64,000 bases of DNA from an uncultured virus (IMG/VR IMGVR_UViG_3300027631_000012) (IMGVR_UViG_3300027631_000012), one strand, 5' to 3'. Shown: positions 24,152 to 64,000, counted from the stretch's first letter. The notes: generated from the letters alone by a model not told the origin. A program made the numbers and translations.

Positions 24152-24172
24152 AACTTATAGATTTATTGTTAT

Positions 24173-24181
24173 ACAAATTTA
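24173..24181 (-). promoter_or_regulatory. Bacteroidota-type -7 box TAAATTTGT upstream of nadV
   Basis: TAnnTTTG match about 21 nt before the ATG. Confidence 0.45.
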
Positions 24182-25267: not shown

Positions 25268-25273
25268 ATATTT

Positions 25274-41446: not shown

Positions 41447-41466
41447 TAAAAATAAATTAAAATAAA

Positions 41467-41640: not shown

Positions 41641-41653
41641 ATATATATAGTAC

Positions 41654-44719: not shown

Positions 44720-44738
44720 AAAAATAAAATTAAAAAAA

Positions 44739-44912
44739 ATGTTTGATGTAAAAATTAATAAAGTTTTCGTGGATCCAAGAACGGGTCAAGATATGTATGT
44801 TTTATCTATACAATTAGGTGATATTTACTATAATCTGAATGTTACAAAAGAACAATTTGAAAAAATTGCTACAAGATTAAAGTCAATATCCGATAATAAT
44901 GAATTAAACTGA
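44739..44912 (+). CDS. 57-aa protein, putative fibre chaperone
   Basis: MFDVKINKVFVDPRTGQDMYVLSIQLGDIYYNLNVTKEQFEKI...; ATG 44739 gives the same length as its paralogue. Confidence 0.8.
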   Translation: MFDVKINKVFVDPRTGQDMYVLSIQLGDIYYNLNVTKEQFEKIATRLKSISDNNELN

Positions 44913-44954
44913 TAATAATTAAAATTATCACTTATTAGATAAAATATATAGAGT

Positions 44955-47900
44955 ATGCCAAATAGTCAACAGAATTCAAAAATAAATGCTGCCTTTTATC
45001 ACTCACTTGGTAAGGTATTAACAGAAGCCTCTAACCTCGTTGGAAATGAGAAGTATAAGAGTGCACATAATGTCAGATCCAATGAAGTTTGGATGGATTC
45101 AATATCTTATGCTCCTACTACAGCATCTGCATCTCAATACGGAGATGGTGTTATAGTTAGACAGGTTGGTAGTGCTTCTCTTATTCCTGACTCTATTGGT
45201 GTATTTTCGAATCCTGTTTATTTATATCCTCTTACAAATACAAATTATCAAACTTGGTTTATTGATACTGGTACACCGACACCTGCTGCTGATGGTTTTG
45301 TTCCATCTAGTAACTGGGTTAAATCGTTAATAAATCCTTCAGATGTTACTGATAGTTCAGGGGCGCCTTCTTTTGGATACCAATTATTAATGTATCAAAA
45401 AGATGGTACTACTGCTATATCTTACGGTAGTGCTTATTATGATGTTGATTATTTTTCAGGACTTATTAGATTTGACATTGGTTATACACCTGCTGATAGT
45501 GGAAATGGATTAGGATTTACTTTTAATAAAGTCAATTTTGAAGCTACCTCTAACGCATCTAAACAATCATATATACAGAGTACATCAACCGGTGGTCCTC
45601 GTGTAGTTGCTTGGCAATATGTGGGTCAAAGATTAAACAATTATACTTTTTCTGGTGGTGGTACAGTATCATTCGATAATACTTCAACAATTGGTTTTAC
45701 ACAAAGTGGTGTAACTTATTCAGCATATGTTATACCTGGTAGTTTAACAGCTTCTAGTTTAAATACTGGTTCAAATGGTGGGGCTACGGCTGGGTACGTT
45801 CTTTCGAATACGGGAGATGGTGTTTTTTCTTGGATTCCTACTGCTAGTGGATCAAGTGGCACATCAGGTACAAGCGGATCTAGTGGTACATCAGGTACAA
45901 GTGGATCTTCAGGATCAAGTGGTACTTCCGGTACATCAGGATCTTCAGGATCAAGTGGTACTTCAGGTACAAGTGGATCAAGTGGATCAAGTGGTACTTC
46001 CGGTACAAGTGGATCTTCAGGATCTTCCGGTACATCAGGATCATCAGGTACTTCCGGTACAAGTGGATCTTCAGGATCTTCCGGTACATCAGGATCATCA
46101 GGTACTTCCGGTACAAGTGGATCAAGTGGTACTTCCGGTACAAGTGGATCATCAGGATCTTCCGGTACTTCAGGAACTAGTGGATCTTCAGGGTCTAGTG
46201 GAACTTCCGGTACTTCAGGATCTTCAGGATCAAGTGGTACTTCAGGATCTTCAGGATCAAGTGGTACTTCAGGTACAAGTGGGTCATCAGGATCTAGTGG
46301 AACTTCTGGTACAAGTGGTAGTTCAGGATCCTCCGGTACTTCAGGTACAAGTGGATCTTCTGGATCAAGTGGCACATCCGGTACAAGTGGATCATCAGGA
46401 TCTTCGGGTACATCCGGAACAAGTGGATCATCAGGATCTTCGGGTACATCCGGAACAAGTGGGTCATCCGGAACAAGTGGAACTTCTGGATCAAGTGGTA
46501 CATCCGGTACATCCGGTACATCAGGATCTTCTGGATCAAGTGGTACTTCAGGTACAAGTGGATCTAGTGGATCATCTGGTACTTCAGGAACAAGCGGATC
46601 ATCCGGTTCTTCAGGAACATCAGGAACTAGTGGATCATCAGGATCAAGCGGAACATCCGGTACAAGTGGATCATCCGGTTCTTCCGGTACATCCGGTACA
46701 AGTGGTAGTTCAGGTACATCAGGAACTAGTGGAATAAGTGGTATAGATGGTGTTGATGGTACTGATGGATCATCAGGAACTAGTGGAACTTCTGGTACAA
46801 GTGGATCATCGGGATCATCCGGTACAAGTGGATCATCGGGATCATCCGGTACAAGTGGATCATCGGGATCATCAGGTACAAGTGGATCATCGGGATCATC
46901 CGGTACAAGTGGTACATCAGGATCTTCAGGATCAAGTGGAACTTCTGGTACATCAGGGTCTTCAGGATCAAGTGGAACTTCCGGTTCATCAGGTACAAGT
47001 GGCGCATCTGGTCTAGGATTAAATTGGGTAGGTGATTGGACTTCAACTACACCTTATGGGCTAAATGATGTTGTTAAATATGGTTCTCCTTATAAAGTTT
47101 ATATAGCTATAACTTATAGTATTGCTCCAAGTTCTTCAACACCTGATATTAATTCTGATTGGGATTTAATGGTTATTTCTGGATCTGATGGATCAAGTGG
47201 TACATCCGGTACAAGCGGATCATCAGGTACATCAGGTACTTCAGGATCAAGTGGTAGTTCAGGTACATCAGGTACTTCAGGATCAAGTGGTAGTTCAGGT
47301 ACATCCGGAACAAGTGGATCTTCTGGATCAGCAGGTACTTCCGGAACAAGTGGATCTTCTGGATCAGCAGGTACATCCGGAACAAGTGGATCATCAGGAT
47401 CTTCGGGTACATCCGGAACAAGTGGATCATCAGGATCTTCGGGTACATCCGGAACAAGTGGGTCATCTGGATCAAGTGGAACTTCAGGATCTTCGGGTAC
47501 ATCCGGAACAAGTGGATCATCTGGATCAGCAGGTACTTCCGGAACAAGTGGATCATCAGGATCAAGTGGAACTTCAGGTACATCCGGTAGTTCAGGATCA
47601 AGTGGAACTTCAGGTACATCAGGTACTTCCGGATCAAGTGGATCATCAGGAACAAGTGGTAGCTCAGGTACATCAGGAACAAGTGGTACATCAGGATTGA
47701 GTGGTGTTGATGGATCTGATGGATCTTCTGGTACTTCTGGTACAAGTGGATCTTCTGGATCAGCAGGTACATCAGGAACAAGTGGATCATCCGGTACTTC
47801 TGGTACAAGCGGTTCATCAGGCACTAGTGGAACTTCCGGATCAAGTGGAACATCAGGTACAAGTGGATCAAGTGGAACATCAGGTACAAGTGGATCAAGT

Positions 47901-50900
47901 GGATCATCCGGTACTTCTGGTACAAGCGGGTCTTCTGGATCATCAGGTACTTCAGGAACTTCGGGTATAAGTGGTATAGACGGAGTTGATGGTACCGATG
48001 GATCATCAGGTACTTCAGGATCATCCGGTACTTCAGGAACTAGTGGATCTTCTGGATCATCAGGTACAAGTGGAACTAGTGGTAGTTCAGGATCATCAGG
48101 TACTTCCGGAACAAGTGGATCATCAGGATCAAGTGGTACTTCAGGAACATCTGGTACAAGTGGATCATCAGGGTCAAGTGGTACTTCAGGAACATCTGGT
48201 AGTTCGGGATCAGCAGGTACATCCGGTACAAGTGGTAGTTCGGGATCCTCCGGTACATCCGGTACAAGTGGAAGTTCGGGTTCTAGTGGAACATCCGGTA
48301 CAAGTGGAAGTTCAGGATCATCCGGTACTTCAGGCACTTCAGGATTAAGTGGTGTTGATGGATCTGATGGTTCTTCAGGAACTTCAGGAACTTCAGGAAC
48401 TTCAGGAACAAGTGGATCTTCTGGATCAGCAGGTACTTCCGGAACAAGTGGATCATCAGGAACTTCAGGAACAAGTGGATCAAGTGGATCATCAGGTACA
48501 TCAGGTACATCTGGATCTAGTGGTACTTCCGGTACAAGTGGATCAAGTGGATCATCAGGTACTTCAGGATCATCCGGTACTTCAGGAACTAGTGGATCTT
48601 CTGGTACAAGTGGATCATCTGGATCATCAGGAACTAGTGGTACTTCCGGTACAAGTGGTAGTTCAGGATCAGCAGGTACTTCAGGAACAAGTGGATCAAG
48701 TGGATCATCCGGTACTTCTGGTACAAGTGGTATCTCGGGATCTAGTGGAACTTCAGGCACAAGTGGTACTTCCGGATTGAGTGGTGTTGATGGATCTGAT
48801 GGATCATCAGGTACATCCGGTACAAGTGGATCTTCTGGATCATCGGGTACATCCGGTACAAGTGGATCATCTGGTACTTCTGGTACAAGTGGATCAAGTG
48901 GAACTTCAGGCACAAGTGGATCATCAGGATCTTCCGGTACATCCGGATCTTCAGGTAGTTCAGGTACATCCGGTACAAGTGGATCAAGTGGAACTTCAGG
49001 CACAAGTGGTAGTTCAGGATCATCAGGTACATCAGGCACAAGTGGTAGTTCAGGATCATCAGGTACATCAGGCACAAGTGGTAGTTCAGGATCATCAGGT
49101 ACTTCAGGAACTTCGGGTATAAGTGGTATAGATGGTGTTGATGGTACTGATGGGTCTTCAGGTACTTCAGGCACAAGTGGTAGTTCAGGATCATCCGGTA
49201 CTTCAGGCACAAGTGGTACTTCCGGGTCTTCTGGATCAAGTGGTACTTCTGGATCAAGTGGTACTTCTGGATCAAGTGGTACTTCTGGTACAAGTGGTAC
49301 TTCTGGTACAAGTGGTAGTTCAGGATCATCAGGAACAAGTGGATCATCAGGATCGGCAGGCACAAGTGGTACTTCCGGATCTAGTGGAACATCAGGTACA
49401 AGTGGATCAAGTGGTAGTTCAGGTACATCAGGTACATCAGGATCAAGTGGTACTTCTGGTACAAGCGGATCAAGTGGTACAAGTGGATCATCAGGATCAG
49501 CAGGTACTTCTGGTACAAGTGGTACATCAGGATTAAGTGGTGTTGATGGATCTGATGGTTCTTCGGGTACAAGTGGATCAAGTGGAACTTCTGGTACAAG
49601 CGGTAGTTCAGGATCAAGTGGTACATCAGGATCTTCTGGATCAAGTGGAACTTCTGGTACAAGCGGATCTTCAGGATCATCAGGGACTTCGGGAACTTCC
49701 GGATCATCAGGATCAAGTGGTACATCAGGCACGAGCGGTTCTTCTGGATCTAGTGGTACATCAGGTACTTCCGGATCATCAGGTACTTCCGGTACAACTG
49801 GTGCAAATGGTATTTCAGCAGGACAAGTTTATTATTTTAATCAATCTGTTACTTCTTCAATACCTGGTATAAAAGAATTATCAACTACGCCGTTAGCAAC
49901 ACCTCAACAAGGTGTTACAGTTTCACTTGTTGGTAGTGCTGCAAATGTTTTAGTTGGTGAGTATATCACTCCTCAATTAGGATTTAGTGTTATTCCTGGT
50001 GGAACACAAAGGTTCCATTTACATATGTTAAAACCAGCATCAAATGACGATATTGTTGTTTATGCTCAAATTGACCTTTGTGATTCAACTGGTACATCTT
50101 ATGGTACATCTATAAATACTGGTGTTGAATTATTGGAGTGGGTATCTGCTGGTGTTGTTGCTGAGAATAATGTTGATTTAGTTTTACCAACAACAACTAT
50201 TAATACAACCGATAGAATGAGAGTTAGAATTTATCTAACTAATAATGATTCTACTTCACATACTGTTTATTTTTATACAGAAGGAACGCAAAATTATTCA
50301 TTTATTCTTACTTCAGTTGGTGCTATATCAGGTACTTCAGGTACAAGTGGAACTTCCGGATCATCAGGATCTAGTGGTACTTCTGGTACAAGTGGATCAT
50401 CTGGATCATCAGGAACTAGTGGCACATCAGGGTCATCAGGATCTAGTGGAACTTCCGGTACAAGTGGATCTTCTGGATCAGCAGGTACATCCGGTACAAG
50501 TGGATCAAGTGGTACATCAGGTACTTCCGGTACAAGTGGATCAAGTGGATCTTCCGGTACATCCGGCACAAGTGGAACTTCTGGTAGTTCAGGATCTAGT
50601 GGAACATCTGGTACAAGTGGATCTTCCGGATTGAGTGGTGTTGATGGATCTGATGGTTCTTCAGGAACTTCGGGTACATCAGGGTCATCAGGATCTAGTG
50701 GGACTTCAGGCACAAGTGGATCATCAGGATCATCCGGTACTTCAGGTACAAGTGGATCATCAGGATCATCCGGTACTTCAGGTACAAGTGGATCATCGGG
50801 ATCTAGTGGTACTTCAGGTACAAGTGGATCTAGTGGATCATCGGGTACAAGTGGTTCTTCCGGATCAAGTGGAACATCTGGTACAAGTGGAACTTCTGGA

Positions 50901-51953
50901 TCATCAGGCTCTAGTGGTACGTCAGGTACAAGTGGATCTAGTGGATCATCGGGAACATCTGGTACAAGTGGATCTAGTGGATCATCAGGAACATCTGGTA
51001 CAAGTGGATCTAGTGGATCATCGGGAACATCTGGCACAAGTGGTACATCAGGATTAAGTGGAGTTGATGGATCTGACGGATCTTCAGGTACATCCGGTAC
51101 AAGTGGTACATCAGGTTCGAGTGGATCTTCTGGTACAAGTGGTAGTTCAGGATCATCAGGAACTTCTGGTACAAGTGGTACATCAGGATCATCAGGAACA
51201 TCCGGTACAAGTGGTACATCAGGTTCGAGTGGATCTTCTGGTACAAGTGGATCATCAGGAACTTCAGGTACAAGTGGATCATCCGGTTCTTCAGGCACTT
51301 CCGGTACAAGTGGATCATCCGGTTCTTCAGGCACTTCCGGTACAAGTGGATCATCCGGTTCTTCAGGTACATCAGGTACATCAGGATCTTCAGGGTCTAG
51401 TGGTACTTCCGGATCTTCTGGTACAAGTGGTACTTCAGGAACTTCCGGATCGAGTGGTACTTCCGGTACTGGCTTTAATACAATTATTAATCCATCTGAT
51501 TATAGAGTTATAACAGCTACTGGATCTTCTCCAAATCAGGCTTACGCTAATAGTAATTTCACTTATGATGCTAATGGTATTATAACAGGATCTAATTATG
51601 GTGTCTTATCTTTAGAACAATCTATTTTTAGAATAAATAGTTATTCGCTTAGTGGTATTACTTCCGGTATTACTACGATTGGTACATTTAGTAATAGTAT
51701 TGGATTTGGATGTTACTTTGATTATTATATTGTTGAAACTGGAACTGGTGGTGCTAGAGTTGGTACTGTTATGTCTGTTTGGAATTTAAGTAATGGTGTT
51801 TCTTTTACAGATAGTTCTACTACTGATTTGAGTTCAACAACTTCAAATTTTGTTTGGAGAGTTACTAACACGTCAAATATAATTTCTCTATCATCAATTA
51901 TTACGGGATCATCTACATTTGATACAAAAGTTTCAGTTAGAATAATAAGTTAA
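44955..51953 (+). CDS. Giant Gly-X-Y (GSS/GTS) repeat fibre protein C, 2332 aa
   Basis: Three repeat tracts separated by globular inserts, one being CBM5/12-like WVGDWTSTTPYGLNDVVKY. Confidence 0.75.
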   Translation: MPNSQQNSKINAAFYHSLGKVLTEASNLVGNEKYKSAHNVRSNEVWMDSISYAPTTASASQYGDGVIVRQVGSASLIPDSIGVFSNPVYLYPLTNTNYQTWFIDTGTPTPAADGFVPSSNWVKSLINPSDVTDSSGAPSFGYQLLMYQKDGTTAISYGSAYYDVDYFSGLIRFDIGYTPADSGNGLGFTFNKVNFEATSNASKQSYIQSTSTGGPRVVAWQYVGQRLNNYTFSGGGTVSFDNTSTIGFTQSGVTYSAYVIPGSLTASSLNTGSNGGATAGYVLSNTGDGVFSWIPTASGSSGTSGTSGSSGTSGTSGSSGSSGTSGTSGSSGSSGTSGTSGSSGSSGTSGTSGSSGSSGTSGSSGTSGTSGSSGSSGTSGSSGTSGTSGSSGTSGTSGSSGSSGTSGTSGSSGSSGTSGTSGSSGSSGTSGSSGSSGTSGTSGSSGSSGTSGTSGSSGSSGTSGTSGSSGSSGTSGTSGSSGSSGTSGTSGSSGSSGTSGTSGSSGTSGTSGSSGTSGTSGTSGSSGSSGTSGTSGSSGSSGTSGTSGSSGSSGTSGTSGSSGSSGTSGTSGSSGSSGTSGTSGSSGTSGTSGISGIDGVDGTDGSSGTSGTSGTSGSSGSSGTSGSSGSSGTSGSSGSSGTSGSSGSSGTSGTSGSSGSSGTSGTSGSSGSSGTSGSSGTSGASGLGLNWVGDWTSTTPYGLNDVVKYGSPYKVYIAITYSIAPSSSTPDINSDWDLMVISGSDGSSGTSGTSGSSGTSGTSGSSGSSGTSGTSGSSGSSGTSGTSGSSGSAGTSGTSGSSGSAGTSGTSGSSGSSGTSGTSGSSGSSGTSGTSGSSGSSGTSGSSGTSGTSGSSGSAGTSGTSGSSGSSGTSGTSGSSGSSGTSGTSGTSGSSGSSGTSGSSGTSGTSGTSGLSGVDGSDGSSGTSGTSGSSGSAGTSGTSGSSGTSGTSGSSGTSGTSGSSGTSGTSGSSGTSGTSGSSGSSGTSGTSGSSGSSGTSGTSGISGIDGVDGTDGSSGTSGSSGTSGTSGSSGSSGTSGTSGSSGSSGTSGTSGSSGSSGTSGTSGTSGSSGSSGTSGTSGSSGSAGTSGTSGSSGSSGTSGTSGSSGSSGTSGTSGSSGSSGTSGTSGLSGVDGSDGSSGTSGTSGTSGTSGSSGSAGTSGTSGSSGTSGTSGSSGSSGTSGTSGSSGTSGTSGSSGSSGTSGSSGTSGTSGSSGTSGSSGSSGTSGTSGTSGSSGSAGTSGTSGSSGSSGTSGTSGISGSSGTSGTSGTSGLSGVDGSDGSSGTSGTSGSSGSSGTSGTSGSSGTSGTSGSSGTSGTSGSSGSSGTSGSSGSSGTSGTSGSSGTSGTSGSSGSSGTSGTSGSSGSSGTSGTSGSSGSSGTSGTSGISGIDGVDGTDGSSGTSGTSGSSGSSGTSGTSGTSGSSGSSGTSGSSGTSGSSGTSGTSGTSGTSGSSGSSGTSGSSGSAGTSGTSGSSGTSGTSGSSGSSGTSGTSGSSGTSGTSGSSGTSGSSGSAGTSGTSGTSGLSGVDGSDGSSGTSGSSGTSGTSGSSGSSGTSGSSGSSGTSGTSGSSGSSGTSGTSGSSGSSGTSGTSGSSGSSGTSGTSGSSGTSGTTGANGISAGQVYYFNQSVTSSIPGIKELSTTPLATPQQGVTVSLVGSAANVLVGEYITPQLGFSVIPGGTQRFHLHMLKPASNDDIVVYAQIDLCDSTGTSYGTSINTGVELLEWVSAGVVAENNVDLVLPTTTINTTDRMRVRIYLTNNDSTSHTVYFYTEGTQNYSFILTSVGAISGTSGTSGTSGSSGSSGTSGTSGSSGSSGTSGTSGSSGSSGTSGTSGSSGSAGTSGTSGSSGTSGTSGTSGSSGSSGTSGTSGTSGSSGSSGTSGTSGSSGLSGVDGSDGSSGTSGTSGSSGSSGTSGTSGSSGSSGTSGTSGSSGSSGTSGTSGSSGSSGTSGTSGSSGSSGTSGSSGSSGTSGTSGTSGSSGSSGTSGTSGSSGSSGTSGTSGSSGSSGTSGTSGSSGSSGTSGTSGTSGLSGVDGSDGSSGTSGTSGTSGSSGSSGTSGSSGSSGTSGTSGTSGSSGTSGTSGTSGSSGSSGTSGSSGTSGTSGSSGSSGTSGTSGSSGSSGTSGTSGSSGSSGTSGTSGSSGSSGTSGSSGTSGTSGTSGSSGTSGTGFNTIINPSDYRVITATGSSPNQAYANSNFTYDANGIITGSNYGVLSLEQSIFRINSYSLSGITSGITTIGTFSNSIGFGCYFDYYIVETGTGGARVGTVMSVWNLSNGVSFTDSSTTDLSSTTSNFVWRVTNTSNIISLSSIITGSSTFDTKVSVRIIS
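45847..51470 (+). repeat. Degenerate 9-nt-unit coding repeat (GSS/GTS), three tracts
   Basis: Tracts at about 45847-47006, 47179-49800 and 50328-51470. Confidence 0.95.
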
Positions 51954-52093
51954 TTTTTATTATCAATTTTTCTTTAATTTTTAGATATATTCTAAAATAT
52001 AGCATTTATATTTTTATATATACGATAAGTAGATGTAATACTCTGCTTAAACAACTTTTCTTTTGGAGAGTGAAAAAAGAAAAATATAAATAA

Positions 52094-55000: not shown

Positions 55001-58000
55001 GGATCTTCAGGTACAAGTGGATCATCAGGCTCTTCAGGGTCTAGTGGTACATCAGGCTCTTCAGGGTCTAGTGGTACAAGTGGTAGCTCAGGTTCAAGTG
55101 GAACTAGTGGATCATCAGGCTCTAGTGGTACATCAGGTAAAGAAGGATCATCAGGATCTTCTGGTACAAGTGGATCATCAGGATCTTCTGGTACAAGTGG
55201 ATCATCAGGATCAAGTGGTACATCGGGGTCTTCAGGGTCAAGTGGAACAAGTGGTTCATCGGGTTCAAGTGGAACTAGTGGATCATCAGGTAGTTCAGGT
55301 ACAAGTGGTAGCTCAGGATCTTCAGGCACAAGTGGATCATCAGGTAGCTCAGGAACAAGTGGATCATCAGGATCTTCAGGTACGAGTGGTAGTTCGGGTA
55401 CTTCCGGATCTAGTGGAACTAGTGGGTCATCTGGTAGCTCAGGTACAAGTGGATCTTCTGGATCAAGTGGAACTTCCGGATCATCAGGATCTAGTGGTAC
55501 AAGTGGGTCTTCAGGAACTAGTGGATCATCAGGCACAAGTGGTTCGTCAGGATCAAGTGGTACTTCCGGATCATCAGGTACAAGTGGATCATCAGGTAGT
55601 TCAGGAACTTCAGGATCTAGTGGAACTAGTGGATCATCGGGTAGTTCAGGAACTTCAGGGTCATCGGGTACAAGTGGATCATCAGGAACTAGCGGATCAT
55701 CAGGAACTAGCGGATCATCAGGAACTAGCGGATCATCTGGCACAAGTGGTAGTTCAGGAACATCAGGATCAAGTGGTTCGTCAGGTTCAAGTGGTACTTC
55801 AGGATCATCAGGATCTAGTGGTACATCAGGTAAAGAAGGATCATCAGGATCTAGTGGAACAAGTGGATCATCAGGATCAAGTGGTACATCGGGGTCTTCA
55901 GGATCTTCCGGTACTAGTGGATCATCTGGCACATCAGGATCTTCAGGATCATCAGGTACATCAGGATCTAGTGGATCAAGTGGAACTTCAGGATCTTCTG
56001 GATCATCAGGTACAAGTGGTTCTTCTGGATCTAGTGGAACTTCGGGATCATCAGGTACATCAGGATCTAGTGGATCAAGTGGAACTTCAGGATCTTCTGG
56101 ATCATCAGGTACAAGTGGTTCTTCTGGATCTAGTGGAACTTCGGGATCATCAGGTACATCAGGATCTAGTGGATCAAGTGGAACTTCAGGATCTTCTGGA
56201 TCATCAGGTACAAGTGGTTCTTCTGGATCTAGTGGAACTTCGGGATCATCAGGTAGTTCAGGTACGAGTGGTAGCTCAGGATCATCAGGCACAAGTGGAT
56301 CATCAGGTAGCTCAGGAACAAGTGGTAGCTCAGGGTCTTCAGGTACAAGTGGATCATCAGGTAGCTCAGGCACAAGTGGTAGCTCAGGGTCTTCAGGCAC
56401 AAGTGGATCATCAGGTAGTTCAGGAACTTCAGGATCTAGTGGAACTAGTGGATCATCAGGATCTTCAGGTACGAGTGGTAGTTCGGGTACTTCCGGATCT
56501 AGTGGAACAAGTGGTTCATCGGGTAGCTCAGGTACAAGTGGATCATCAGGTTCTAGTGGTACAAGTGGATCTTCAGGGTCTAGTGGAACTTCAGGATCAT
56601 CAGGTTCTAGTGGAACTTCAGGATCAAGTGGTAGTTCAGGGACATCAGGTAAAGAAGGATCATCTGGATCAAGTGGAACTTCAGGATCATCAGGATCAAG
56701 TGGTACTTCTGGATCAAGTGGATCTTCAGGAACTAGTGGATCATCAGGATCTAGCGGTACTTCTGGATCTAGCGGTACTTCTGGATCTAGTGGATCTTCA
56801 GGTACAAGTGGTAGTTCAGGTACAAGTGGTAGTTCAGGTACAAGTGGTAGCTCAGGATCTAGTGGTACAAGTGGATCATCAGGATCTTCCGGAACTTCCG
56901 GATCTTCGGGTTCAAGTGGAACTTCCGGATCCTCTGGAACAAGTGGATCATCTGGATCTAGTGGAACATCAGGGTCAAGTGGTACTTCCGGATCATCTGG
57001 ATCAAGTGGTACTTCTGGTAAGTCAGGATCATCCGGATCAAGTGGTACAAGTGGAACAAGTGGCTTAAGTGGTATTGATGGTACAAATGGAACAGGTGGT
57101 ACGAGTGGATCTTCAGGAACTAGTGGATCATCAGGTAGTTCAGGTACAAGTGGATCTTCTGGATCTAGTGGTACAAGTGGATCATCAGGATCTAGTGGAA
57201 CATCAGGATCTTCTGGGTCAAGTGGAACATCAGGATCTTCTGGGTCAAGTGGAACAAGTGGGTCTTCCGGTACATCAGGTAAGGCGGGATCAAGTGGTAC
57301 TTCAGGATCATCAGGAACTAGCGGATCATCTGGATCTAGCGGTACAAGTGGATCATCGGGTACATCAGGATCTTCGGGTAGTTCAGGAACTAGCGGATCA
57401 TCAGGTACAAGTGGATCATCCGGATCTAGTGGAACTTCAGGCTCATCAGGAACTAGCGGATCATCAGGTAGTTCAGGCACAAGTGGATCTAGTGGTACTT
57501 CTGGATCTTCAGGTTCTAGTGGAACATCAGGATCATCAGGATCAAGTGGTACTTCTGGATCTTCAGGTTCAAGCGGAACAAGTGGTTCATCAGGTTCATC
57601 CGGAACTAGTGGATCTAGTGGTACATCAGGATCATCTGGTAGCTCAGGTACAAGTGGATCTTCAGGTAGTTCAGGTACAAGTGGTAGCTCAGGCTCATCA
57701 GGAACTTCAGGGTCTTCAGGTAGCTCAGGTACAAGTGGATCATCAGGATCATCAGGTACAAGTGGATCATCAGGATCATCAGGATCTAGTGGAACATCTG
57801 GATCTTCAGGATCATCCGGAACTAGTGGATCATCAGGTAGTTCAGGTACAAGTGGATCTTCAGGGACTAGTGGTTCGTCTGGAACTAGTGGATCTAGCGG
57901 ATCTTCAGGTACAAGTGGTTCGTCAGGATCTAGTGGTACTTCTGGATCATCAGGATCTAGTGGAACATCTGGATCATCAGGTACAAGTGGTTCATCAGGG

Positions 58001-61000
58001 TCATCAGGTACAAGTGGTTCATCAGGTACATCCGGATCATCAGGATCTTCAGGTACAAGTGGTTCTTCAGGGTCATCAGGAACTAGTGGATCATCAGGTA
58101 CATCCGGATCTTCAGGATCTAGTGGTACTTCTGGATCATCGGGATCTAGTGGTACAAGTGGATCTTCTGGATCATCAGGTACAAGTGGATCATCGGGTAC
58201 ATCAGGTAAGGCGGGATCAAGTGGTACTTCAGGATCATCAGGTACAAGTGGTTCATCAGGTTCGTCTGGTACATCAGGATCAAGTGGGTCTTCGGGAACT
58301 AGTGGTTCTTCAGGATCATCAGGTACAAGTGGTTCATCAGGGTCAAGTGGAACAAGTGGTTCAAGTGGATCTTCAGGAACTAGTGGTAGTTCAGGATCTA
58401 GTGGTACAAGTGGATCTTCTGGATCTTCTGGTACATCAGGATCAAGTGGAACTTCAGGATCATCAGGTACATCCGGATCTTCTGGTACAAGTGGTTCATC
58501 AGGGTCTAGTGGTACTTCTGGATCATCAGGATCATCCGGTACAAGTGGTAGTTCAGGATCATCCGGTACAAGTGGTAGTTCAGGATCATCCGGTACAAGT
58601 GGTTCTTCAGGTAGTTCAGGTACATCAGGATCAAGTGGTACTAGTGGATCATCTGGATCTAGCGGTACAAGTGGATCTTCAGGATCTAGTGGTACATCAG
58701 GATCTAGTGGATCAAGTGGAACTTCCGGTTCTTCAGGCTCATCAGGAACTTCCGGTTCTTCAGGCAGCTCAGGTACAAGTGGTTCGTCAGGATCAAGTGG
58801 TACATCAGGATCAAGTGGTACATCAGGATCATCCGGAACTTCCGGCTCATCCGGAACAAGTGGTTCGTCAGGATCTAGTGGAACTTCCGGTTCTTCTGGA
58901 TCTAGTGGTACAAGTGGTTCATCAGGATCTTCAGGTACATCAGGATCTAGTGGCACAAGTGGTTCATCAGGATCAAGCGGCACATCAGGGTCTTCGGGTA
59001 CATCAGGATCAAGTGGTACTAGTGGATCATCTGGATCTAGCGGTACATCAGGATCTAGTGGATCAAGTGGAACTTCCGGTTCTTCAGGCAGCTCAGGTAC
59101 AAGTGGCTCATCAGGATCATCAGGAACAAGTGGCTCATCGGGTAGCTCAGGTACATCAGGATCATCAGGATCAAGTGGTACTAGTGGATCATCAGGATCA
59201 AGTGGTACATCAGGTAGTTCAGGATCATCAGGTACAAGTGGATCTTCAGGATCATCCGGTACAAGTGGATCATCCGGAACAAGTGGATCATCAGGAACAA
59301 GTGGATCTTCAGGGTCATCCGGAACAAGTGGTAGTTCAGGATCAAGCGGTACATCAGGTAGCTCAGGATCTTCGGGCACAAGTGGATCTTCAGGATCATC
59401 CGGTACATCAGGATCAAGTGGAACTTCTGGTTCATCAGGTTCATCAGGAACAAGTGGTTCATCAGGTAGCTCAGGCACAAGTGGTTCGTCAGGATCAAGT
59501 GGTACATCAGGATCTTCAGGATCAAGCGGTACATCAGGATCAAGTGGAACATCAGGTAGTTCAGGATCATCAGGAACAAGTGGATCAAGCGGTACTTCTG
59601 GTAAAGCTGGATCTAGTGGATCATCAGGAACAAGTGGATCTTCAGGATCTAGTGGAACATCAGGATCTTCTGGATCATCCGGAACAAGTGGATCTTCAGG
59701 ATCATCGGGTACAAGTGGATCTTCAGGATCTTCAGGTACAAGTGGTTCATCAGGATCTTCAGGTACAAGTGGTTCATCAGGATCATCCGGAACAAGTGGA
59801 TCTTCAGGATCTAGTGGAACATCGGGTAAGGCAGGATCTAGTGGATCAAGTGGAACAAGTGGTTCGTCAGGTATTACTGGAGTTGGTAACTTCACACTTG
59901 AGTATACGGGTACAGATATTACTACTAGTGCTTTCGTTAGTCAGAATGTGACTATAATTCCAAATCCAGGATCTAGTGACTTTTTCACTATAAATGGTTC
60001 TTATTTTAGATTTTCTTTAACTGATAGATTTAGTAATAATATTTACCAAACTCTTGTAGACTTAAAGAGCATACTAGATACTTATGCCGGTCCTACTATA
60101 ATGATTAAGATTACTGATATTAATGATCCAAGTAAGTATAATTTTTATTCAGCTTCTTCTATTGGGTGGTCTCTTACATCAGGTAGTGGTATACAAACAG
60201 ATCATGTTTATTATAGTTCAGGAGCTGGTATAACTGACTTCTCAACTAATGATGTGGCTGTTACTTTCATAATACCTGGTCGAAATGGATCTTCTGGATC
60301 TAGTGGTACAAGTGGTTCATCAGGATCTTCAGGTACATCAGGATCTTCAGGTAGTTCAGGTACAAGTGGATCTAGTGGATCAAGTGGAACATCGGGTAAG
60401 GCAGGATCTAGTGGATCAAGTGGTACTAGTGGATCATCAGGATCATCAGGTACAAGTGGATCATCAGGATCTTCAGGAACTAGTGGATCTTCTGGATCTA
60501 GTGGCACAAGTGGATCTTCAGGATCATCAGGTACAAGTGGATCATCAGGATCTTCGGGAACTAGTGGATCATCAGGTTCATCAGGTACAAGTGGATCATC
60601 AGGTACATCTGGTCAATCTGGTATGGATGGATCCAACTCTGGTAGATGGTATTATAACTCAGGTGTTACTGCTCCGGCTGATCCAACTGTTACTAAATTT
60701 GCTATAAATGCTACTTTAGGAACTAATAGTTGGATTTCCATAAGTTCAGCTAATATAAATGGTACTAACTATACCAATTGGCTCGCGGCTTTAAATACCA
60801 TTTATACATCTGGTAACACTATTTATTTACAGTTATATGAAGTTGGTTCTACAAACATTATAGGTATCTGGACTGTTGATGCTACTGTTATTCAGTCATA
60901 TGGTATTGATATAAGAGTAACACCTCTTATAGCAAATGGTTCTTTAATTAATGGTAGAGCTTATACAATTTCATGGGTATTTAATGGAAAAAATGGTTCA

Positions 61001-61735
61001 TCAGGAACAAGTGGTTCTTCAGGTACAAGTGGATCATCCGGAACTTCTGGATCAAGTGGTACATCGGGATCAAGTGGTACATCGGGATCAAGTGGTACAT
61101 CCGGTACATCCGTTGCTGTAGCTGGTACAGGTGATGTATTTACTAAATTTACATCAGCAACTACAATTGGAGATACTTCATATGATGTTCATGAGATGCC
61201 TTCAGATGGTACTTTATCATTTGGACCAGCAACAGATGTTAGCGCTCTTACATATGGTCAGATAGCACATGCTAAAGATATTATAGCAATTCAAGGTGAT
61301 GCTCAAACCAATCAGATAATATTAAAGGGGTCGGTTCCTCCTACTGCGTGGGCGACTCTAACTTCGGATTCTGGTGGTGCTGCTCAAATTCAAATACCTG
61401 TTGGAGCGGCTTTATCTGGAGCAATTTCATTCCGAGTACAATTAGTTGCTATGGAGAACAGTGCTAGTTCTTATACTAGTCATTTAGTTTATGAAGGTCT
61501 CGCTAAAGCAACTCCTACAACAAGTTCTATAGTAAATGTCATGAATGCTAATCCGGCTGAAGAGATAATAGGATTACATAAGGCGCAATTTTCAACTACT
61601 GGATCGGGAACCGCTGGAGCTTTCTTGGTTATTGAGGTTCTTAACAATTCAGGTGCTGGTTCACCTTGGCCTCCTGCTCCGGGAAGACCAGCAAATGTAG
61701 TAGTTTATGTAAGATATACACAAACAGTATTTTAA
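52094..61735 (+). CDS. Giant Gly-X-Y repeat fibre protein D, 3213 aa
   Basis: N-terminal fibre-type domain (FNVTLPTAVG...SSQTIDG), about 2490 aa uninterrupted GSS/GTS tract, then C-terminal globular domains. Confidence 0.75.
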   Translation: MANEFVTRRGIISLGGITFPYAAVTGTYTIGQDDYFIDCTSGTFNVTLPTAVGIAGKIHVVKNSGNGVITVNTTSSQTIDGSLTKTLSQYASLYLESNGTDWVIGGISGSSGTSGSSGTSGSSGSSGTSGSSGSSGTSGSSGSSGTSGSSGSSGTSGSSGSSGSSGTSGSSGTSGSSGSSGTSGSSGTSGSSGSSGTSGSSGSSGTSGSSGTSGSSGSSGSSGTSGSSGSSGTSGTSGYSGVDGSSGTSGSSGSSGTSGSSGTSGLSGSSGTSGSSGTSGSSGSSGTSGSSGSSGTSGSSGSSGTSGSSGTSGSSGSSGTSGSSGSSGTSGSSGTSGSSGSSGTSGSSGSSGSSGTSGSSGSSGTSGSSGSSGTSGSSGTSGSSGSSGTSGSSGTSGSSGSSGTSGSSGSSGTSGSSGSSGTSGSSGSSGTSGSSGTSGSSGSSGTSGSSGSSGSSGTSGSSGSSGTSGSSGTSGSSGSSGTSGSSGSSGTSGSSGSSGTSGSSGSSGTSGSSGSSGTSGSSGSSGTSGSSGSSGTSGSSGSSGTSGSSGSSGTSGSSGSSGSSGTSGSSGTSGSSGTSGSSGSSGTSGSSGSSGTSGSSGSSGTSGSSGSSGTSGSSGTSGSSGTSGSSGTSGSSGTSGSSGTSGSSGSSGTSGSSGSSGTSGSSGTSGSSGSSGTSGSSGSSGTSGSSGSSGTSGSSGTSGSSGSSGTSGSSGTSGSSGSSGTSGSSGSSGTSGSSGTSGSSGSSGTSGSSGSSGTSGSSGSSGSSGTSGSSGSSGTSGSSGSSGTSGSSGSSGSSGTSGSSGSSGTSGSSGSSGTSGSSGTSGSSGTSGSSGSSGTSGSSGSSGTSGSSGSSGTSGSSGTSGSSGSSGTSGSSGSSGTSGSSGSSGTSGSSGSSGTSGSSGTSGSSGSSGTSGSSGSSGTSGSSGSSGSSGTSGSSGSSGTSGSSGSSGTSGSSGSSGSSGTSGSSGSSGTSGSSGSSGSSGTSGSSGSSGTSGSSGSSGTSGSSGSSGTSGKEGSSGSSGTSGSSGSSGTSGSSGSSGTSGSSGSSGTSGSSGSSGTSGSSGSSGTSGSSGSSGTSGSSGSSGTSGSSGSSGTSGSSGTSGSSGTSGSSGSSGTSGSSGSSGTSGSSGSSGTSGSSGTSGSSGTSGSSGSSGTSGSSGTSGSSGSSGTSGSSGTSGSSGSSGTSGSSGTSGSSGTSGSSGTSGSSGTSGSSGTSGSSGTSGSSGSSGSSGTSGSSGSSGTSGKEGSSGSSGTSGSSGSSGTSGSSGSSGTSGSSGTSGSSGSSGTSGSSGSSGTSGSSGSSGTSGSSGSSGTSGSSGTSGSSGSSGTSGSSGSSGTSGSSGSSGTSGSSGTSGSSGSSGTSGSSGSSGTSGSSGSSGTSGSSGSSGTSGSSGSSGTSGSSGSSGTSGSSGSSGTSGSSGSSGTSGSSGSSGTSGSSGSSGTSGSSGTSGSSGSSGTSGSSGTSGSSGTSGSSGSSGTSGSSGSSGTSGSSGSSGTSGSSGSSGTSGSSGSSGTSGKEGSSGSSGTSGSSGSSGTSGSSGSSGTSGSSGSSGTSGSSGTSGSSGSSGTSGSSGTSGSSGTSGSSGSSGTSGSSGSSGTSGSSGSSGTSGSSGTSGSSGSSGTSGSSGTSGSSGSSGTSGKSGSSGSSGTSGTSGLSGIDGTNGTGGTSGSSGTSGSSGSSGTSGSSGSSGTSGSSGSSGTSGSSGSSGTSGSSGSSGTSGSSGTSGKAGSSGTSGSSGTSGSSGSSGTSGSSGTSGSSGSSGTSGSSGTSGSSGSSGTSGSSGTSGSSGSSGTSGSSGTSGSSGSSGTSGSSGSSGTSGSSGSSGTSGSSGSSGTSGSSGTSGSSGSSGTSGSSGSSGTSGSSGSSGTSGSSGSSGTSGSSGSSGTSGSSGSSGSSGTSGSSGSSGTSGSSGSSGTSGSSGTSGSSGTSGSSGSSGTSGSSGSSGTSGSSGSSGTSGSSGTSGSSGSSGTSGSSGTSGSSGSSGTSGSSGSSGTSGSSGTSGSSGSSGTSGSSGSSGTSGSSGSSGTSGSSGTSGKAGSSGTSGSSGTSGSSGSSGTSGSSGSSGTSGSSGSSGTSGSSGSSGTSGSSGSSGTSGSSGSSGTSGSSGSSGTSGSSGTSGSSGTSGSSGTSGSSGSSGTSGSSGSSGTSGSSGSSGTSGSSGSSGTSGSSGSSGTSGSSGTSGSSGSSGTSGSSGSSGTSGSSGSSGTSGSSGSSGTSGSSGSSGTSGSSGSSGTSGSSGTSGSSGTSGSSGTSGSSGSSGTSGSSGSSGTSGSSGSSGTSGSSGTSGSSGSSGTSGSSGTSGSSGTSGSSGSSGTSGSSGSSGTSGSSGSSGTSGSSGSSGTSGSSGSSGTSGSSGSSGTSGSSGSSGTSGSSGSSGTSGSSGSSGTSGSSGTSGSSGTSGSSGSSGTSGSSGSSGTSGSSGSSGTSGSSGSSGTSGSSGTSGSSGSSGTSGSSGSSGTSGSSGSSGTSGSSGSSGTSGSSGTSGSSGSSGTSGSSGTSGKAGSSGSSGTSGSSGSSGTSGSSGSSGTSGSSGSSGTSGSSGSSGTSGSSGSSGTSGSSGSSGTSGSSGSSGTSGKAGSSGSSGTSGSSGITGVGNFTLEYTGTDITTSAFVSQNVTIIPNPGSSDFFTINGSYFRFSLTDRFSNNIYQTLVDLKSILDTYAGPTIMIKITDINDPSKYNFYSASSIGWSLTSGSGIQTDHVYYSSGAGITDFSTNDVAVTFIIPGRNGSSGSSGTSGSSGSSGTSGSSGSSGTSGSSGSSGTSGKAGSSGSSGTSGSSGSSGTSGSSGSSGTSGSSGSSGTSGSSGSSGTSGSSGSSGTSGSSGSSGTSGSSGTSGQSGMDGSNSGRWYYNSGVTAPADPTVTKFAINATLGTNSWISISSANINGTNYTNWLAALNTIYTSGNTIYLQLYEVGSTNIIGIWTVDATVIQSYGIDIRVTPLIANGSLINGRAYTISWVFNGKNGSSGTSGSSGTSGSSGTSGSSGTSGSSGTSGSSGTSGTSVAVAGTGDVFTKFTSATTIGDTSYDVHEMPSDGTLSFGPATDVSALTYGQIAHAKDIIAIQGDAQTNQIILKGSVPPTAWATLTSDSGGAAQIQIPVGAALSGAISFRVQLVAMENSASSYTSHLVYEGLAKATPTTSSIVNVMNANPAEEIIGLHKAQFSTTGSGTAGAFLVIEVLNNSGAGSPWPPAPGRPANVVVYVRYTQTVF
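52414..61108 (+). repeat. Degenerate 9-nt-unit coding repeat (GSS/GTS), three tracts
   Basis: Tracts at about 52414-59873, 60287-60625 and 60995-61108. Confidence 0.95.
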
Positions 61736-61757
61736 TAGTATTTACTTTACTTTAATT

Positions 61758-61800
61758 TAATTAACCAATCTCAATTATTTGAGGTTGGTTAATTATTTTT
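61758..61800 (+). terminator. Long hairpin/terminator after protein D
   Basis: TAATTAACCAATCTCAA-TTAT-TTGAGGTTGGTTAATTA followed by TTTTT. Confidence 0.7.
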
Positions 61801-61921
61801 TAAATAAACCACTAATTTCCATTTTTTATTGAAGATAATGTGATATTACTCTTTAATATTAAAATATATAACTATGGAAATTAATATATAGAATTATATA
61901 GAAAAAATTAAAAGAACCTGA

Positions 61922-64000
61922 ATGTCAAAATATATAATCAGTAATAGTGATGGTGTAGAATTTATCACGGGAACCGGACCTAATAATAAAGGATTAAACA
62001 TACCAGTAGTCGCTAACGCTACTACACATACTACATCTGGTATAGAAACTGGAGCAGTAATATTTGATGATTTAACAAAACAAATTTTCAGATTTACAGG
62101 AACTGCTTGGTTGTCTGGTGCTGGTACATCCGGAACTAGCGGTACAAGTGGAACTAGTGGTAGTTCAGGATCAAGTGGGTCTTCGGGATCATCAGGATCT
62201 TCCGGGTCTAGTGGTACTTCTGGTAAAGATGGATCATCTGGAACTTCCGGATCTAGCGGCTCTTCCGGATCTAGCGGTAGTTCAGGTACATCAGGATCAT
62301 CAGGTTCTTCAGGTACAAGTGGATCATCAGGATCAAGCGGATCAAGCGGATCAAGCGGATCATCAGGTAGTTCAGGTACATCAGGATCAAGTGGTTCTTC
62401 TGGATCATCAGGATCAAGCGGATCTTCAGGATCAAGTGGCTCTTCTGGTACATCAGGTAAAGCAGGATCAAGTGGTACTAGTGGCTCTTCAGGATCAAGT
62501 GGTACATCAGGATCATCAGGTAGTTCAGGATCAAGCGGGTCAAGTGGTACATCCGGATCAAGTGGATCATCAGGTTCTTCGGGTTCTTCGGGTTCTTCGG
62601 GTTCTTCCGGATCAAGTGGTTCAAGTGGATCATCAGGTACAAGTGGTTCTTCTGGATCAAGTGGATCATCTGGATCAAGCGGATCTTCAGGTACATCAGG
62701 ATCAAGTGGTTCTAGTGGAACTTCAGGGTCGTCGGGATCAAGCGGATCATCAGGAAGTTCAGGATCATCAGGATCAAGTGGATCTTCAGGCACAAGTGGT
62801 TCTTCCGGATCATCAGGAAGTTCAGGATCAAGTGGATCATCTGGTACAAGTGGATCTTCAGGCACATCAGGAAGTTCAGGATCATCAGGATCAAGTGGTA
62901 CATCAGGAAGTTCAGGATCAAGCGGATCAAGCGGATCATCAGGTAGTTCAGGTACATCAGGATCAAGTGGATCTTCCGGTACATCAGGATCAAGTGGATC
63001 AAGTGGATCAAGTGGTTCATCAGGAACATCAGGTAAAGCAGGATCAAGTGGTACATCAGGGTCAAGTGGGTCAAGTGGTTCAAGTGGTACATCAGGATCA
63101 AGTGGGTCAAGTGGATCAAGTGGTACATCAGGATCTTCAGGCTCATCAGGATCTTCAGGATCGTCAGGATCAAGTGGAAGTTCAGGTACATCCGGATCAA
63201 GTGGAACATCCGGATCAAGTGGATCTTCTGGTACATCAGGATCAAGTGGTTCTAGTGGATCAAGTGGTAGTTCAGGAACATCAGGATCAAGTGGATCATC
63301 TGGATCTAGTGGTAGTTCAGGAACATCAGGATCAAGTGGAACTTCAGGTTCGTCGGGATCAAGCGGTAGTTCAGGATCTAGTGGATCATCAGGATCATCA
63401 GGCACATCAGGATCAAGCGGTTCATCGGGTTCTAGTGGATCAAGTGGTACTTCAGGGTCGTCAGGATCAAGCGGATCATCAGGTAGTTCAGGTACATCAG
63501 GATCAAGCGGTTCATCAGGTACATCAGGTAAAGCAGGATCTTCGGGTACAAGTGGATCTTCAGGATCTTCAGGTACATCAGGAAGTTCAGGATCAAGTGG
63601 ATCTAGTGGTACAAGTGGATCAAGTGGTAGTTCAGGATCAAGCGGATCATCAGGATCATCAGGGTCAAGTGGTACATCAGGATCTTCTGGATCTAGTGGG
63701 TCTTCAGGATCTTCAGGATCAAGTGGTACATCAGGATCAAGCGGTTCTAGTGGTACATCAGGATCAAGTGGTTCATCGGGGTCAAGCGGTTCAAGCGGAT
63801 CATCAGGCACTTCAGGATCTTCGGGATCAAGTGGCTCATCTGGTACATCAGGTTCTTCGGGATCAAGTGGATCATCAGGATCCTCAGGTACAAGTGGTTC
63901 TAGTGGATCTTCAGGATCTTCAGGTACATCAGGATCAAGTGGTTCTTCAGGATCAAGTGGATCAAGTGGTACTTCAGGTTCATCAGGATCAAGTGGATCA
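61922..64000 (+). CDS. Third Gly-X-Y repeat fibre protein E (3'-truncated; absent from ORF track)
   Basis: ATG 61922 MSKYIISNSDGVEFITG...FTGTAWLSGAGTSGTSG..., open to the window end; TAATATATA 61882-61890. Confidence 0.8.
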   Translation, partial: MSKYIISNSDGVEFITGTGPNNKGLNIPVVANATTHTTSGIETGAVIFDDLTKQIFRFTGTAWLSGAGTSGTSGTSGTSGSSGSSGSSGSSGSSGSSGTSGKDGSSGTSGSSGSSGSSGSSGTSGSSGSSGTSGSSGSSGSSGSSGSSGSSGTSGSSGSSGSSGSSGSSGSSGSSGTSGKAGSSGTSGSSGSSGTSGSSGSSGSSGSSGTSGSSGSSGSSGSSGSSGSSGSSGSSGSSGTSGSSGSSGSSGSSGSSGTSGSSGSSGTSGSSGSSGSSGSSGSSGSSGSSGTSGSSGSSGSSGSSGSSGTSGSSGTSGSSGSSGSSGTSGSSGSSGSSGSSGSSGTSGSSGSSGTSGSSGSSGSSGSSGTSGKAGSSGTSGSSGSSGSSGTSGSSGSSGSSGTSGSSGSSGSSGSSGSSGSSGTSGSSGTSGSSGSSGTSGSSGSSGSSGSSGTSGSSGSSGSSGSSGTSGSSGTSGSSGSSGSSGSSGSSGSSGTSGSSGSSGSSGSSGTSGSSGSSGSSGSSGTSGSSGSSGTSGKAGSSGTSGSSGSSGTSGSSGSSGSSGTSGSSGSSGSSGSSGSSGSSGTSGSSGSSGSSGSSGSSGTSGSSGSSGTSGSSGSSGSSGSSGSSGTSGSSGSSGSSGTSGSSGSSGSSGSSGTSGSSGSSGSSGTSGSSGSSGSSGSSGTSGSSGSSGS
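62123..64000 (+). repeat. GSS-rich Gly-X-Y coding repeat
   Basis: Continuous GSS/GTS triplets with occasional GKA/GKD. Confidence 0.95.

Follow-up and report, generated by a model that had tools for sequence, protein, structure and literature searches.

Background

Can a virus build long fibres of the collagen type from glycine, serine and threonine, with no proline in the repeat? The question is raised by three consecutive open reading frames (ORFs A, B and C), which occupy the plus strand from 44955 to the end of a 64,000-nucleotide stretch of DNA from an uncultured virus (IMG/VR IMGVR_UViG_3300027631_000012). The whole stretch was analysed and is hereafter referred to as the window. Each of the three genes encodes globular domains joined by long tracts with Gly at every third residue, in which the other two residues are nearly always Ser or Thr. 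From the composition of the tracts, the selection acting on them, the predicted folds of the adjoining domains and the phage genes around them, we consider it rather probable that the gene products are trimeric virion fibres, in which the tracts are wound into a proline-free collagen-type triple helix, probably glycosylated, and serve as long tethers.

The stability of collagen is at present ascribed to imino acids, to charge pairs, or to Thr/Gln hydration and glycosylation, and natural rods of Gly, Ser and Thr only, hundreds of nanometres in length, would be a test of the minimal sequence of a triple helix. Collagen-like fibres of phages are already known; the proline-free Ser/Thr chemistry has not been studied at the bench. 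The organisation of the three genes, the evidence for selection on their repeats, the architectures of related fibres and the alternative explanations are discussed below.

Organisation and composition of the three fibre genes

Translation and a regular-expression scan identified ORF A (44955-51953, 2332 amino acids (aa)), ORF B (52094-61735, 3213 aa) and ORF C (from 61922 past the window end at 64000, at least 692 aa) as collagen-like fibre genes, which together hold 1,643 triplets, or 4,929 residues, in seven unbroken tracts. According to the domain map, ORF A begins with an N-terminal domain (aa 1-298) and continues with tracts of 130 (45849-47018), 293 (47181-49817) and 127 (50331-51473) unbroken triplets, the first two separated by a Trp-rich knot of 54 aa (47019-47180) and the last two by a domain of 171 aa (49818-50330); a predicted beta-sandwich domain of 159 aa (51474-51950) forms its C-terminus. 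ORF B opens with a 105-aa domain of the attachment type (52094-52408), which leads into the longest tract of all, 831 unbroken triplets or 2,493 residues (52409-59887). A domain of 130 aa, a tract of 40 triplets (60278-60637), a domain of 116 aa (60638-60985), a tract of 14 triplets (60986-61111) and a C-terminal domain of 207 aa (61112-61732) complete the protein. The tract of ORF C, preceded by an N-terminal domain of 67 aa, comprises at least 208 triplets, mostly G-S-S (62123-63994).

Pooled over the seven tracts, Ser (51.3%), Gly (33.4%) and Thr (13.2%) constitute 97.9% of the 4,929 residues, while Pro is absent (0 of 4,929) and Asp, Glu, Lys and Arg together amount to 44 residues (0.9%). 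The X position is taken by Ser or Thr, with Thr at about 650 sites (about 40% of X), and the Y position by Ser in about 97% of the triplets, with Thr in 2 of 1,643 and Gln in none. In the 831-triplet tract, 18 triplets deviate from G-[S/T]-S, spaced irregularly and with the register kept throughout. The higher-order pattern is specific to each gene, being approximately GSS-GSS-GTS-GTS in ORF A, GTS-GSS(-GSS) in ORF B and GTS and then two to nine GSS in ORF C. The Pfam Collagen profile (PF01391, cut-off 27.2 bits), whose score derives from the periodicity of Gly, matches aa 1-815 of ORF A with 209.5 bits and ORF C with 298 bits, and ORF C could be aligned in register with type I collagen over about 600 residues, with identity on Gly alone.

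A first-pass annotation of this DNA had described three consecutive genes for giant proline-free Gly-X-Y proteins, with a longest tract of about 830 triplets at about 52414-59873, rare substitutions (GVD, GID, GKE, GKA and GLS) that keep the register, and globular domains at the fibre ends. The translations and the scan bear out the three genes and the longest tract, the limits of which had been placed a few bases off, and all five substitutions are present, along with the further rare triplets GYS, GKS, GTN, GTG, GIT, GVG and GIS. Globular domains are indeed found at the ends, and also between the tracts, as judged from the domain map, structure models and PHROG matches. The description as proline-free is correct for the tracts and not for the whole proteins, as ORFs A, B and C contain 27, 22 and 2 Pro, respectively, in their globular parts only. 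Likewise, three genes with long tracts are present as described, but the fibre cluster to which they belong actually has five genes, the other two of which are considered further below.

Long open frames other than the Gly frame also cross the tract DNA, for example on the minus strand at 52807-59895 (2362 aa) and on the plus strand at 52404-57068 (1554 aa). These are regarded as by-products of the repeat because the Gly frame alone joins the globular domains; such frames across 45700-63900 could mislead gene callers. A terminator-like hairpin of 17 pairs followed by a T run lies on the plus strand at 61758-61795, 23 nt past the ORF B stop codon, and ORFs B and C may for this reason be separate transcripts.

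Selection on the repeat and agreement among assemblies

Codon usage in the tracts distinguishes a conserved protein from a conserved DNA unit. In each of the 1,643 Gly codons the first two bases are G, whereas the third varies, with a heterozygosity of 0.56. For Ser at Y the tracts use 966 codons of the TCN family and 619 of the AGY family, and one synonymous change is never enough to pass from one family to the other; the preference for Thr at X over Y, noted above, is nearly absolute. If a DNA unit had evolved in concert, the three codon positions would be equally homogenised; the codon pattern is therefore attributed to purifying selection on the protein, and points to position-specific selection that keeps Gly at every third residue and Ser at Y. 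A period of three fits a three-residue helix, and not beta or alpha structure. At the nucleotide level the long arrays are degenerate, with 57-72% matches in Tandem Repeats Finder, and in the region 44955-64000 as a whole 97% of the 51-mers and more than 99% of the 151-mers occur once.

Parts of the window were found in 20 public sequencing runs from eight studies. Contigs of the four best runs matched its non-repeat parts, in three of the runs with zero or very few differences; 15 joints listed for these contigs, with sides of 20-27 letters that fall short of the 30 required, were disregarded. Two differences of length were seen within tracts, a 9-nt insertion at 49781 (run X3) and a 9-nt deletion at 63059 (run X4, depth below 5). 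A related fibre of 3122 aa, with tracts of 684, 132 and 36 triplets, is identical in ten contigs from ten metagenomes, and the gene neighbouring it has 783 or 784 triplets. The only differences among these ten contigs across 20 kb are a 9-nt insertion in register and a single-nucleotide polymorphism. All three in-tract differences of length, in the two runs and among the relatives, are of exactly 9 nt, that is, one triplet.

Globular domains and the modular fibre family

The N-terminal 105 aa of ORF B have 117 relatives in viral contigs. An AlphaFold2 (AF2) model built from 38 relatives is all-beta, with a predicted local distance difference test (pLDDT) value of 90.6, and Foldseek matched it to a tail-spike depolymerase, a phage capsid spike, baseplate chains of a Klebsiella phage, residues 1-250 and 1-335 of CBA120 TSP4 and the T4 baseplate proteins gp9 and gp10. 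We take these matched proteins to be trimeric virion proteins, and the matched part of TSP4 is presumably its attachment region. As modelled, the domain resembles the virion-attachment type of trimeric spikes and fibres. It was also found in 12 records of GenBank phages at 31-42% identity, a collection in which neither the N-terminal nor the C-terminal domain of ORF A has a close relative.

Relatives of the C-terminal 159 aa of ORF A number 115 among 1.84 billion representatives, always at the end of the protein. The AF2 model (pLDDT 85.6) has a weak Foldseek likeness, with query TM-scores of at most 0.49, to tail spikes, tail fibres and T4 gp9, and the domain recurs at 33% identity in a fibre of L007, one of the related loci. 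The 116-aa domain of ORF B is 38% identical to a domain in the 3122-aa fibre (L011). For the C-terminal 207 aa of ORF B, no relative was found in the viral contigs and no close one in GenBank phages, and an Atlas look-up returned unnamed viral clusters alone (below 0.9). A Trp- and Tyr-rich knot of 49-54 aa lies between two tracts in three fibres (47019-47180 in the window, L004, and L005 at 13256-13402); the knot of the window matches PHROG 9851 (tail fibre, E 8e-5) and no Pfam family, and by eye it may be likened to small carbohydrate-binding modules.

Domains of these kinds are combined with tracts of several chemistries. In 18 of 77 viral loci, the ORF B N-terminal domain stands at the N-terminus with a Gly-X-Y tract after it. 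The tract is G-[S/T]-S without Pro in 13 of these and of another chemistry in five, namely G-[E/F/A]-T, G-[Q/T/E]-T or G-[S/T/N]-[Q/A/N]; in most of the remaining loci the domain forms the end of a non-collagen protein. Similarly, a tract of five or more triplets, in some cases of the G-P-T type, precedes the ORF A C-terminal domain in 18 of its 115 relatives. Since the same end domains are joined to either chemistry, the G-[S/T]-S tracts fill the slot of ordinary prokaryotic collagen-like sequences. Tract length ranges from 15 to 831 triplets in paralogs and relatives that share these kinds of end domain. Fibres of the G-[S/T]-S type are widespread in uncultured aquatic phages. A search for homologs of the whole ORF B returned 36 proteins, none with a tract of more than 93 triplets; the composition correction of HMMER probably hides giant tracts, so this search is no measure of rarity.

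Two kinds of related fibre depart further from the pattern. In those of L007, L008 and L010 (for example, L007 2338-4602), the tract comprises 156-160 G-[E/F/A]-T triplets and Phe takes about 31% of the X positions, which makes it an unusual, aromatic-rich collagen-like tract. In L006 (9146-16528), a fibre of 2461 aa with an N-terminal domain of the ORF B type alternates G-X-T tracts with large domains, which on our reading of the sequence would contain RCC1-like repeats, and its end looks like that of tail fibres with an intramolecular chaperone.

Proposed structure and alternative explanations

In the model proposed here, the N-terminal globular domain would anchor each chain to the phage particle, and small beta-rich knots would separate the long Gly-[Ser/Thr]-Ser tracts of the shaft. 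Three chains, their register set by the globular domains, would wind into a collagen-type triple helix without Pro, with Gly in the core and the hydroxyls of Ser and Thr on the surface. With the rise of 0.286 nm per residue of the collagen helix, the helices would measure about 0.76 micrometre in ORF B, 0.47 micrometre in ORF A and at least 0.18 micrometre in ORF C; the earlier estimate for the longest tract alone, 2,493 residues at about 0.29 nm or about 0.7 micrometre, was calculated correctly. The distal globular domain would bind the host, swappable terminal domains would set the specificity, and the long thin tethers would widen the radius of host encounter in dilute water, their reach being tuned through gain and loss of whole triplets.

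The surface hydroxyls would probably be O-glycosylated by a TibC/Aah-type transferase that the phage encodes outside the window, and glycosylation would take over the stabilising role of the imino acids. TibC and Aah enzymes attach heptose to Ser residues in the repetitive domains of adhesins. The corresponding family, TIGR04414 (Aah/TibC O-heptosyltransferase, cut-off 200 bits), was matched in three of the four related contigs that carry such fibres, in one of them below the cut-off; the scores are 285 bits in G003, where the gene lies 415 nt from the gene for the 3122-aa fibre, and 279 bits in G002. It was not found in G004, a fragment of 60 kb, nor in the 642-kb uncultured phage LR756502.1, to which parts of the window are about 75% identical in DNA. 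The closest relative, G001, a 155-kb IMG/VR contig, has a sugar-modification cassette (7301-14038 of L098, which is G001 40001-60000) with a DegT aminotransferase, a GFO/IDH oxidoreductase, a hexapeptide acyltransferase, a GT2 and an FkbM methyltransferase, the last gene encoding a 625-aa GT9 / TibC-Aah-like protein. The cassette is 6.5 kb from a second G-S-S fibre gene, and the transferase about 98 kb upstream of the ORF A ortholog. By synteny with G001, an equivalent gene in the phage of the window would be expected about 53 kb to the left of the window, hence outside it. O-glycosylation of the tracts seems a reasonable inference for the lineage; the first-pass annotation had proposed a test for it, and the transferase in three of four related contigs lends the idea indirect support. 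The fuller picture, in which dense O-glycosylation of the TibC/Aah type stabilises an imino-acid-free triple helix and turns the fibres into sugar-coated rods of about 0.75 micrometre that act as adjustable host-capture lines, is offered only tentatively.

Several observations weigh against the trimeric, helical and glycosylated fibre. Ser and Thr are weak formers of the triple helix in host-guest peptides, and the usual stabilisers of collagen (Pro or Hyp, charge pairs, Thr or Gln at Y) are absent from the tracts or nearly so; imino acids are lacking altogether and charge pairs almost entirely, with 44 of 4,929 residues charged. In most of the top literature matches, (Gly-Ser-Ser)n is a flexible linker made in the laboratory. 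The trimer and the helix are features that we infer from the sequence, and the capsid spike among the fold matches of the ORF B N-terminal domain leaves the choice between tail and head unsettled. No glycosyltransferase was matched within the window (39 ORFs by Pfam, 21 unexplained ORFs by NCBIfam), and the TIGR04414 match in G001 reaches 177 bits, below the cut-off. Neither were G-[S/T]-S tracts found in LR756502.1, in which one weak match was not examined, nor a match to ORF C in LR745206.1; with the closest complete megaphage genomes showing no such tracts, the trait is not needed by all relatives. Lastly, the tract lengths come from one assembly, which the contigs of the four public runs neither confirm nor refute, being broken into fragments of at most 925 bases, none of which spans a tract. 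The least certain part of the assembly is the near-exact DNA repeat at 55874-56309 on the plus strand, where a 99-nt unit recurs in about four copies at 89-93% identity (Tandem Repeats Finder) and the copy number is uncertain.

This repeat bears on the explanation that the tracts were inflated or collapsed during assembly, the real ones being much shorter or otherwise different. The almost exact copies of the 99-nt unit, the shattering of the public-run contigs within tracts and the fact that the relatives' contigs L004 and L022 stop inside tracts all speak for it. The longest exact repeat of the region is, at 211 nt, restricted to this one site (copies at 55946 and 56045). The uniqueness of nearly all 51-mers and 151-mers, the frame and Gly register that run unbroken across 7.5 kb and in frame with globular domains at both ends, and the agreement of ten separate assemblies of a relative on 684 and 783/784 triplets make the explanation very unlikely; assembly error could alter a tract length, chiefly at the 99-nt unit, and not the nature of the genes. 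Still less probable, in our estimate, is that the proteins are no part of the virion and have their role during infection, released or displayed, for example as a matrix, as a decoy or as a coat on the host surface. The virion location is a prediction from the genes, which leaves room for such a role, but the N-terminal domain of ORF B is predicted to fold like the domains by which tail spikes and baseplate proteins attach to virions, that of ORF A is common to a neighbouring fibre paralog, the baseplate-hub protein of the window bears the same repeat, and PHROG tail-fibre families match both that paralog (gene 2, below) and the Trp-rich knot.

If the proteins are virion fibres with tracts of the lengths given, the tracts themselves might adopt another conformation. 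The first-pass annotation had offered a compact polyglycine-II (PGII) bundle as the alternative. The tracts would then be folded back into short blocks instead of long rods, and a repeat with Gly in every third place and small side chains in the others would suit PGII packing too. Known PGII bundles, such as the snow-flea antifreeze protein and some phage adhesin tips, consist of short strands joined by turns. An uninterrupted run of 831 triplets has no break, turn motif or regular punctuation of that kind, and lengths ranging from 15 to 831 triplets between the same end domains suit a shaft more than a folded block; we accordingly regard PGII bundles as very unlikely. A stronger competitor, though in our view also rather unlikely, is a disordered tether of Ser and Thr, perhaps heavily O-glycosylated in the manner of a mucin-like bottle-brush, which would link trimeric globular domains without an ordered helix and owe its reach to entropic or sugar-stiffened chains. 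In composition the tracts match synthetic flexible linkers, Pro is missing and charge almost so, and relatives have a glycosylation cassette, all in keeping with this explanation. A disordered linker, on the other hand, needs no exact third-residue Gly, and yet 0 of 1,643 Gly codons are changed at positions 1-2, while variation occurs at their third positions and at X and Y. The uniform 9-nt size of the three length differences argues in the same direction, with the qualification that one was seen at depth below 5 and that 9-nt slippage could also account for it. Homologous fibres, moreover, place ordinary collagen-like tracts at the same position.

The triple helix remains the reading we prefer. 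Should dense O-glycosylation stabilise it, as in the fuller picture above, the rods would be among the longest uninterrupted triple helices known and would show a third route to stability besides hydroxyproline and charge pairs. A sugar coat would be a new viral use of a type of enzyme that glycosylates bacterial adhesins. Fibres of near-micrometre length would revise the estimates of how large aquatic phages find their hosts, and would account for the breaks at fibre genes in assemblies of such phages.

Fibre cluster, genomic context and relatives of the phage

ORFs A to C appear, from their shared domains, to be the end of a cluster of five genes for modular fibre paralogs. Gene 1 (38261-41446, plus strand, 1061 aa) has no Gly-X-Y tract and no Pfam or NCBIfam match; its C-terminal part of about 640 aa is paralogous to gene 2, with 59% identity over 651 aa in BLASTP. 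Gene 2 (41654-44719, plus strand, 1021 aa) contains a G-[S/T]-S tract of 15 triplets at 42521-42655, between an N-terminal domain of 289 aa that it has in common with ORF A (64% identity) and the C-terminal part common to gene 1. Pfam Collagen matches gene 2 with 28.8 bits, and PHROG tail-fibre families match the tract together with its flanks. At the other end of the window, a baseplate-hub or central-spike protein with a gp5-type OB domain (3287-5848, plus strand; Pfam Phage_base_V, E 2.1e-10; PHROG 430) has a G-[S/T]-S tract of 12 triplets at 4997-5104, followed by about 250 further residues, which suggests that a central fibre may be made with the same repeat chemistry.

The window is DNA of a large T4-like aquatic phage. 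Besides the gp5-type hub, Pfam and PHROG matches identified a tail lysozyme, ClpP, a primase, an HNH endonuclease (13881-14351), PolB, IF3, NAMPT with a Nudix protein, UvsY, PPK2, a DNA methylase and an endolysin. ClpP, IF3, the NAD salvage pair of NAMPT and Nudix, and PPK2 lie at 8450-9103, 18823-19374, 22721-26176 and 29919-31079, respectively. A 475-aa ORF (17361-18788) gives a partial match to the profile of family-B DNA polymerases, with the best stretch at positions 136-237, and the polymerase of the window may be split or highly diverged. A short DUF6576 motif occurs in two proteins (15381-15893 and 35350-35979). The G+C content is about 30% outside the tracts, and no tRNA gene was found in the window. 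The motif TATAAATA, which we take to be the T4 late-promoter motif, occurs 15 times against 9.4 expected, a number reached by 7 of 100 shuffles; it does not precede the fibre genes, except for one copy 1 nt ahead of the ORF B start, and no conclusion is drawn from it.

G001 is collinear with the window for 37 of the 42 window ORFs from 1.2 to 45.8 kb, at 47-95% protein identity, and ends inside its ortholog of ORF A (L004). This ortholog has the layout of ORF A, with an N-terminal domain of 71% identity and the Trp-rich knot of 54 aa; its first tract has 138 triplets against 130 in the window, and the tract behind the knot has 259 triplets or more and is richer in Asp at Y. LR756502.1, which is among the freshwater and subsurface megaphages of more than 630 kb described in the available text of PMC9723777, has one ORF of the G-A-T/G-S-Q type with 71 and 25 triplets, and one further weak match at 35% identity. 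The possibility that the phage of the window is itself such a megaphage was considered and set aside, as the DNA likeness to LR756502.1 is confined to parts of conserved genes; the idea is also weakened by the collinear G001, which at 155 kb is rated 83% complete.

Comparison with known systems

Searches of the main text of accessible papers found no natural collagen-like protein of the G-[S/T]-S type. Among the matches listed for Gly-Ser-Ser and Gly-Thr-Ser strings, most were synthetic linkers and the others unrelated (malaria surface antigens and siderophores among them). Nothing was found on collagen-like sequences in combination with phage and heptosyltransferase, searches on proline-free or proline-poor triple helices returned none on such proteins, and those on collagen in huge, jumbo or mega phages returned passing mention of collagen-related annotations only. 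On the structural side, a Gly6 segment becomes part of the helix when it is clamped between triple-helical flanks, as reported in the accessible part of PMC13673506, and regions poor in imino acids adopt a 10/3 helix, according to that of PMC13138384.

Collagen-like repeats in phage tail fibres have long been known, the available text of PMC1079782 citing Smith et al. 1998 for 'bacteriophage collagen', and collagen-like tail fibres of phages and prophages form trimeric triple helices (PMC3368898, in the part available). The closest parallels in architecture are EPclA and EPclB, which are likewise phage-encoded and have an N-terminal globular domain, a Gly-X-Y stalk and a C-terminal globular domain; EPclA, from a prophage of E. 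coli O157:H7, is a trimer with a collagen triple helix of Tm 42 C and the form of a dumbbell of about 60 nm (PMC3368898). The tracts of the EPcl proteins are short and charged, with 48% Pro at X, in contrast to the window tracts with no Pro, 0.9% charged residues and up to 831 triplets (PMC3368898). In ecology, orf028 of cyanophage P-SSM2 is the nearer likeness, as a candidate tail fibre of an aquatic T4-like phage (PMC1079782). About 49% of that ORF is Gly-X-Y, with X and Y often Pro, Ser or Thr; unlike the window tracts it contains Pro, a distinction made here from the description in the available text and not from the sequence (PMC1079782).

Outside the phages, BclA of the Bacillus anthracis exosporium (matched as PDB 1wck) also has a hydroxyl-rich collagen-like filament with a C-terminal trimeric globular domain. 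Its repeat is mostly G-P-T, with Pro at X and, as the glycosylated residue, Thr at Y, whereas the window tracts have Ser at Y, Thr there in only 2 of 1,643 triplets and no Pro; the tracts of BclA are also far shorter. BclA is glycosylated, and the authors of a review believe that the sugars aid the hydration network (PMC8968730, as far as its available text goes). With TibC-TibA and Aah-AIDA-I the likeness is one of enzyme and arrangement, the relatives of the window phage encoding a member or near-member of the family beside or near Ser-rich fibre genes; the presumed substrate is a collagen-like repeat, unlike the beta-helical autotransporter passenger of TibA and AIDA-I. Type I animal collagen (PDB 3hqv) shares the uninterrupted Gly-X-Y register over hundreds of triplets. 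Animal collagen chains, of about 338 triplets each, rely on Pro and Hyp; the main tract of ORF B reaches about 2.5 times that length without imino acids.

Viewed against these systems, the distinct hydroxyl-rich fibre class put forward in the first-pass annotation is justified as regards chemistry, which is unlike that of the prokaryotic and viral collagens tabulated in the available parts of PMC3368898 and PMC8968730. As a class of its own it is overstated, the same terminal domains carrying G-X-T, G-X-Q and G-P-T tracts elsewhere. Judged by their sequences, the fibres of ORFs A, B and C are best described as a composition and length variant of the collagen-like fibres of phages.

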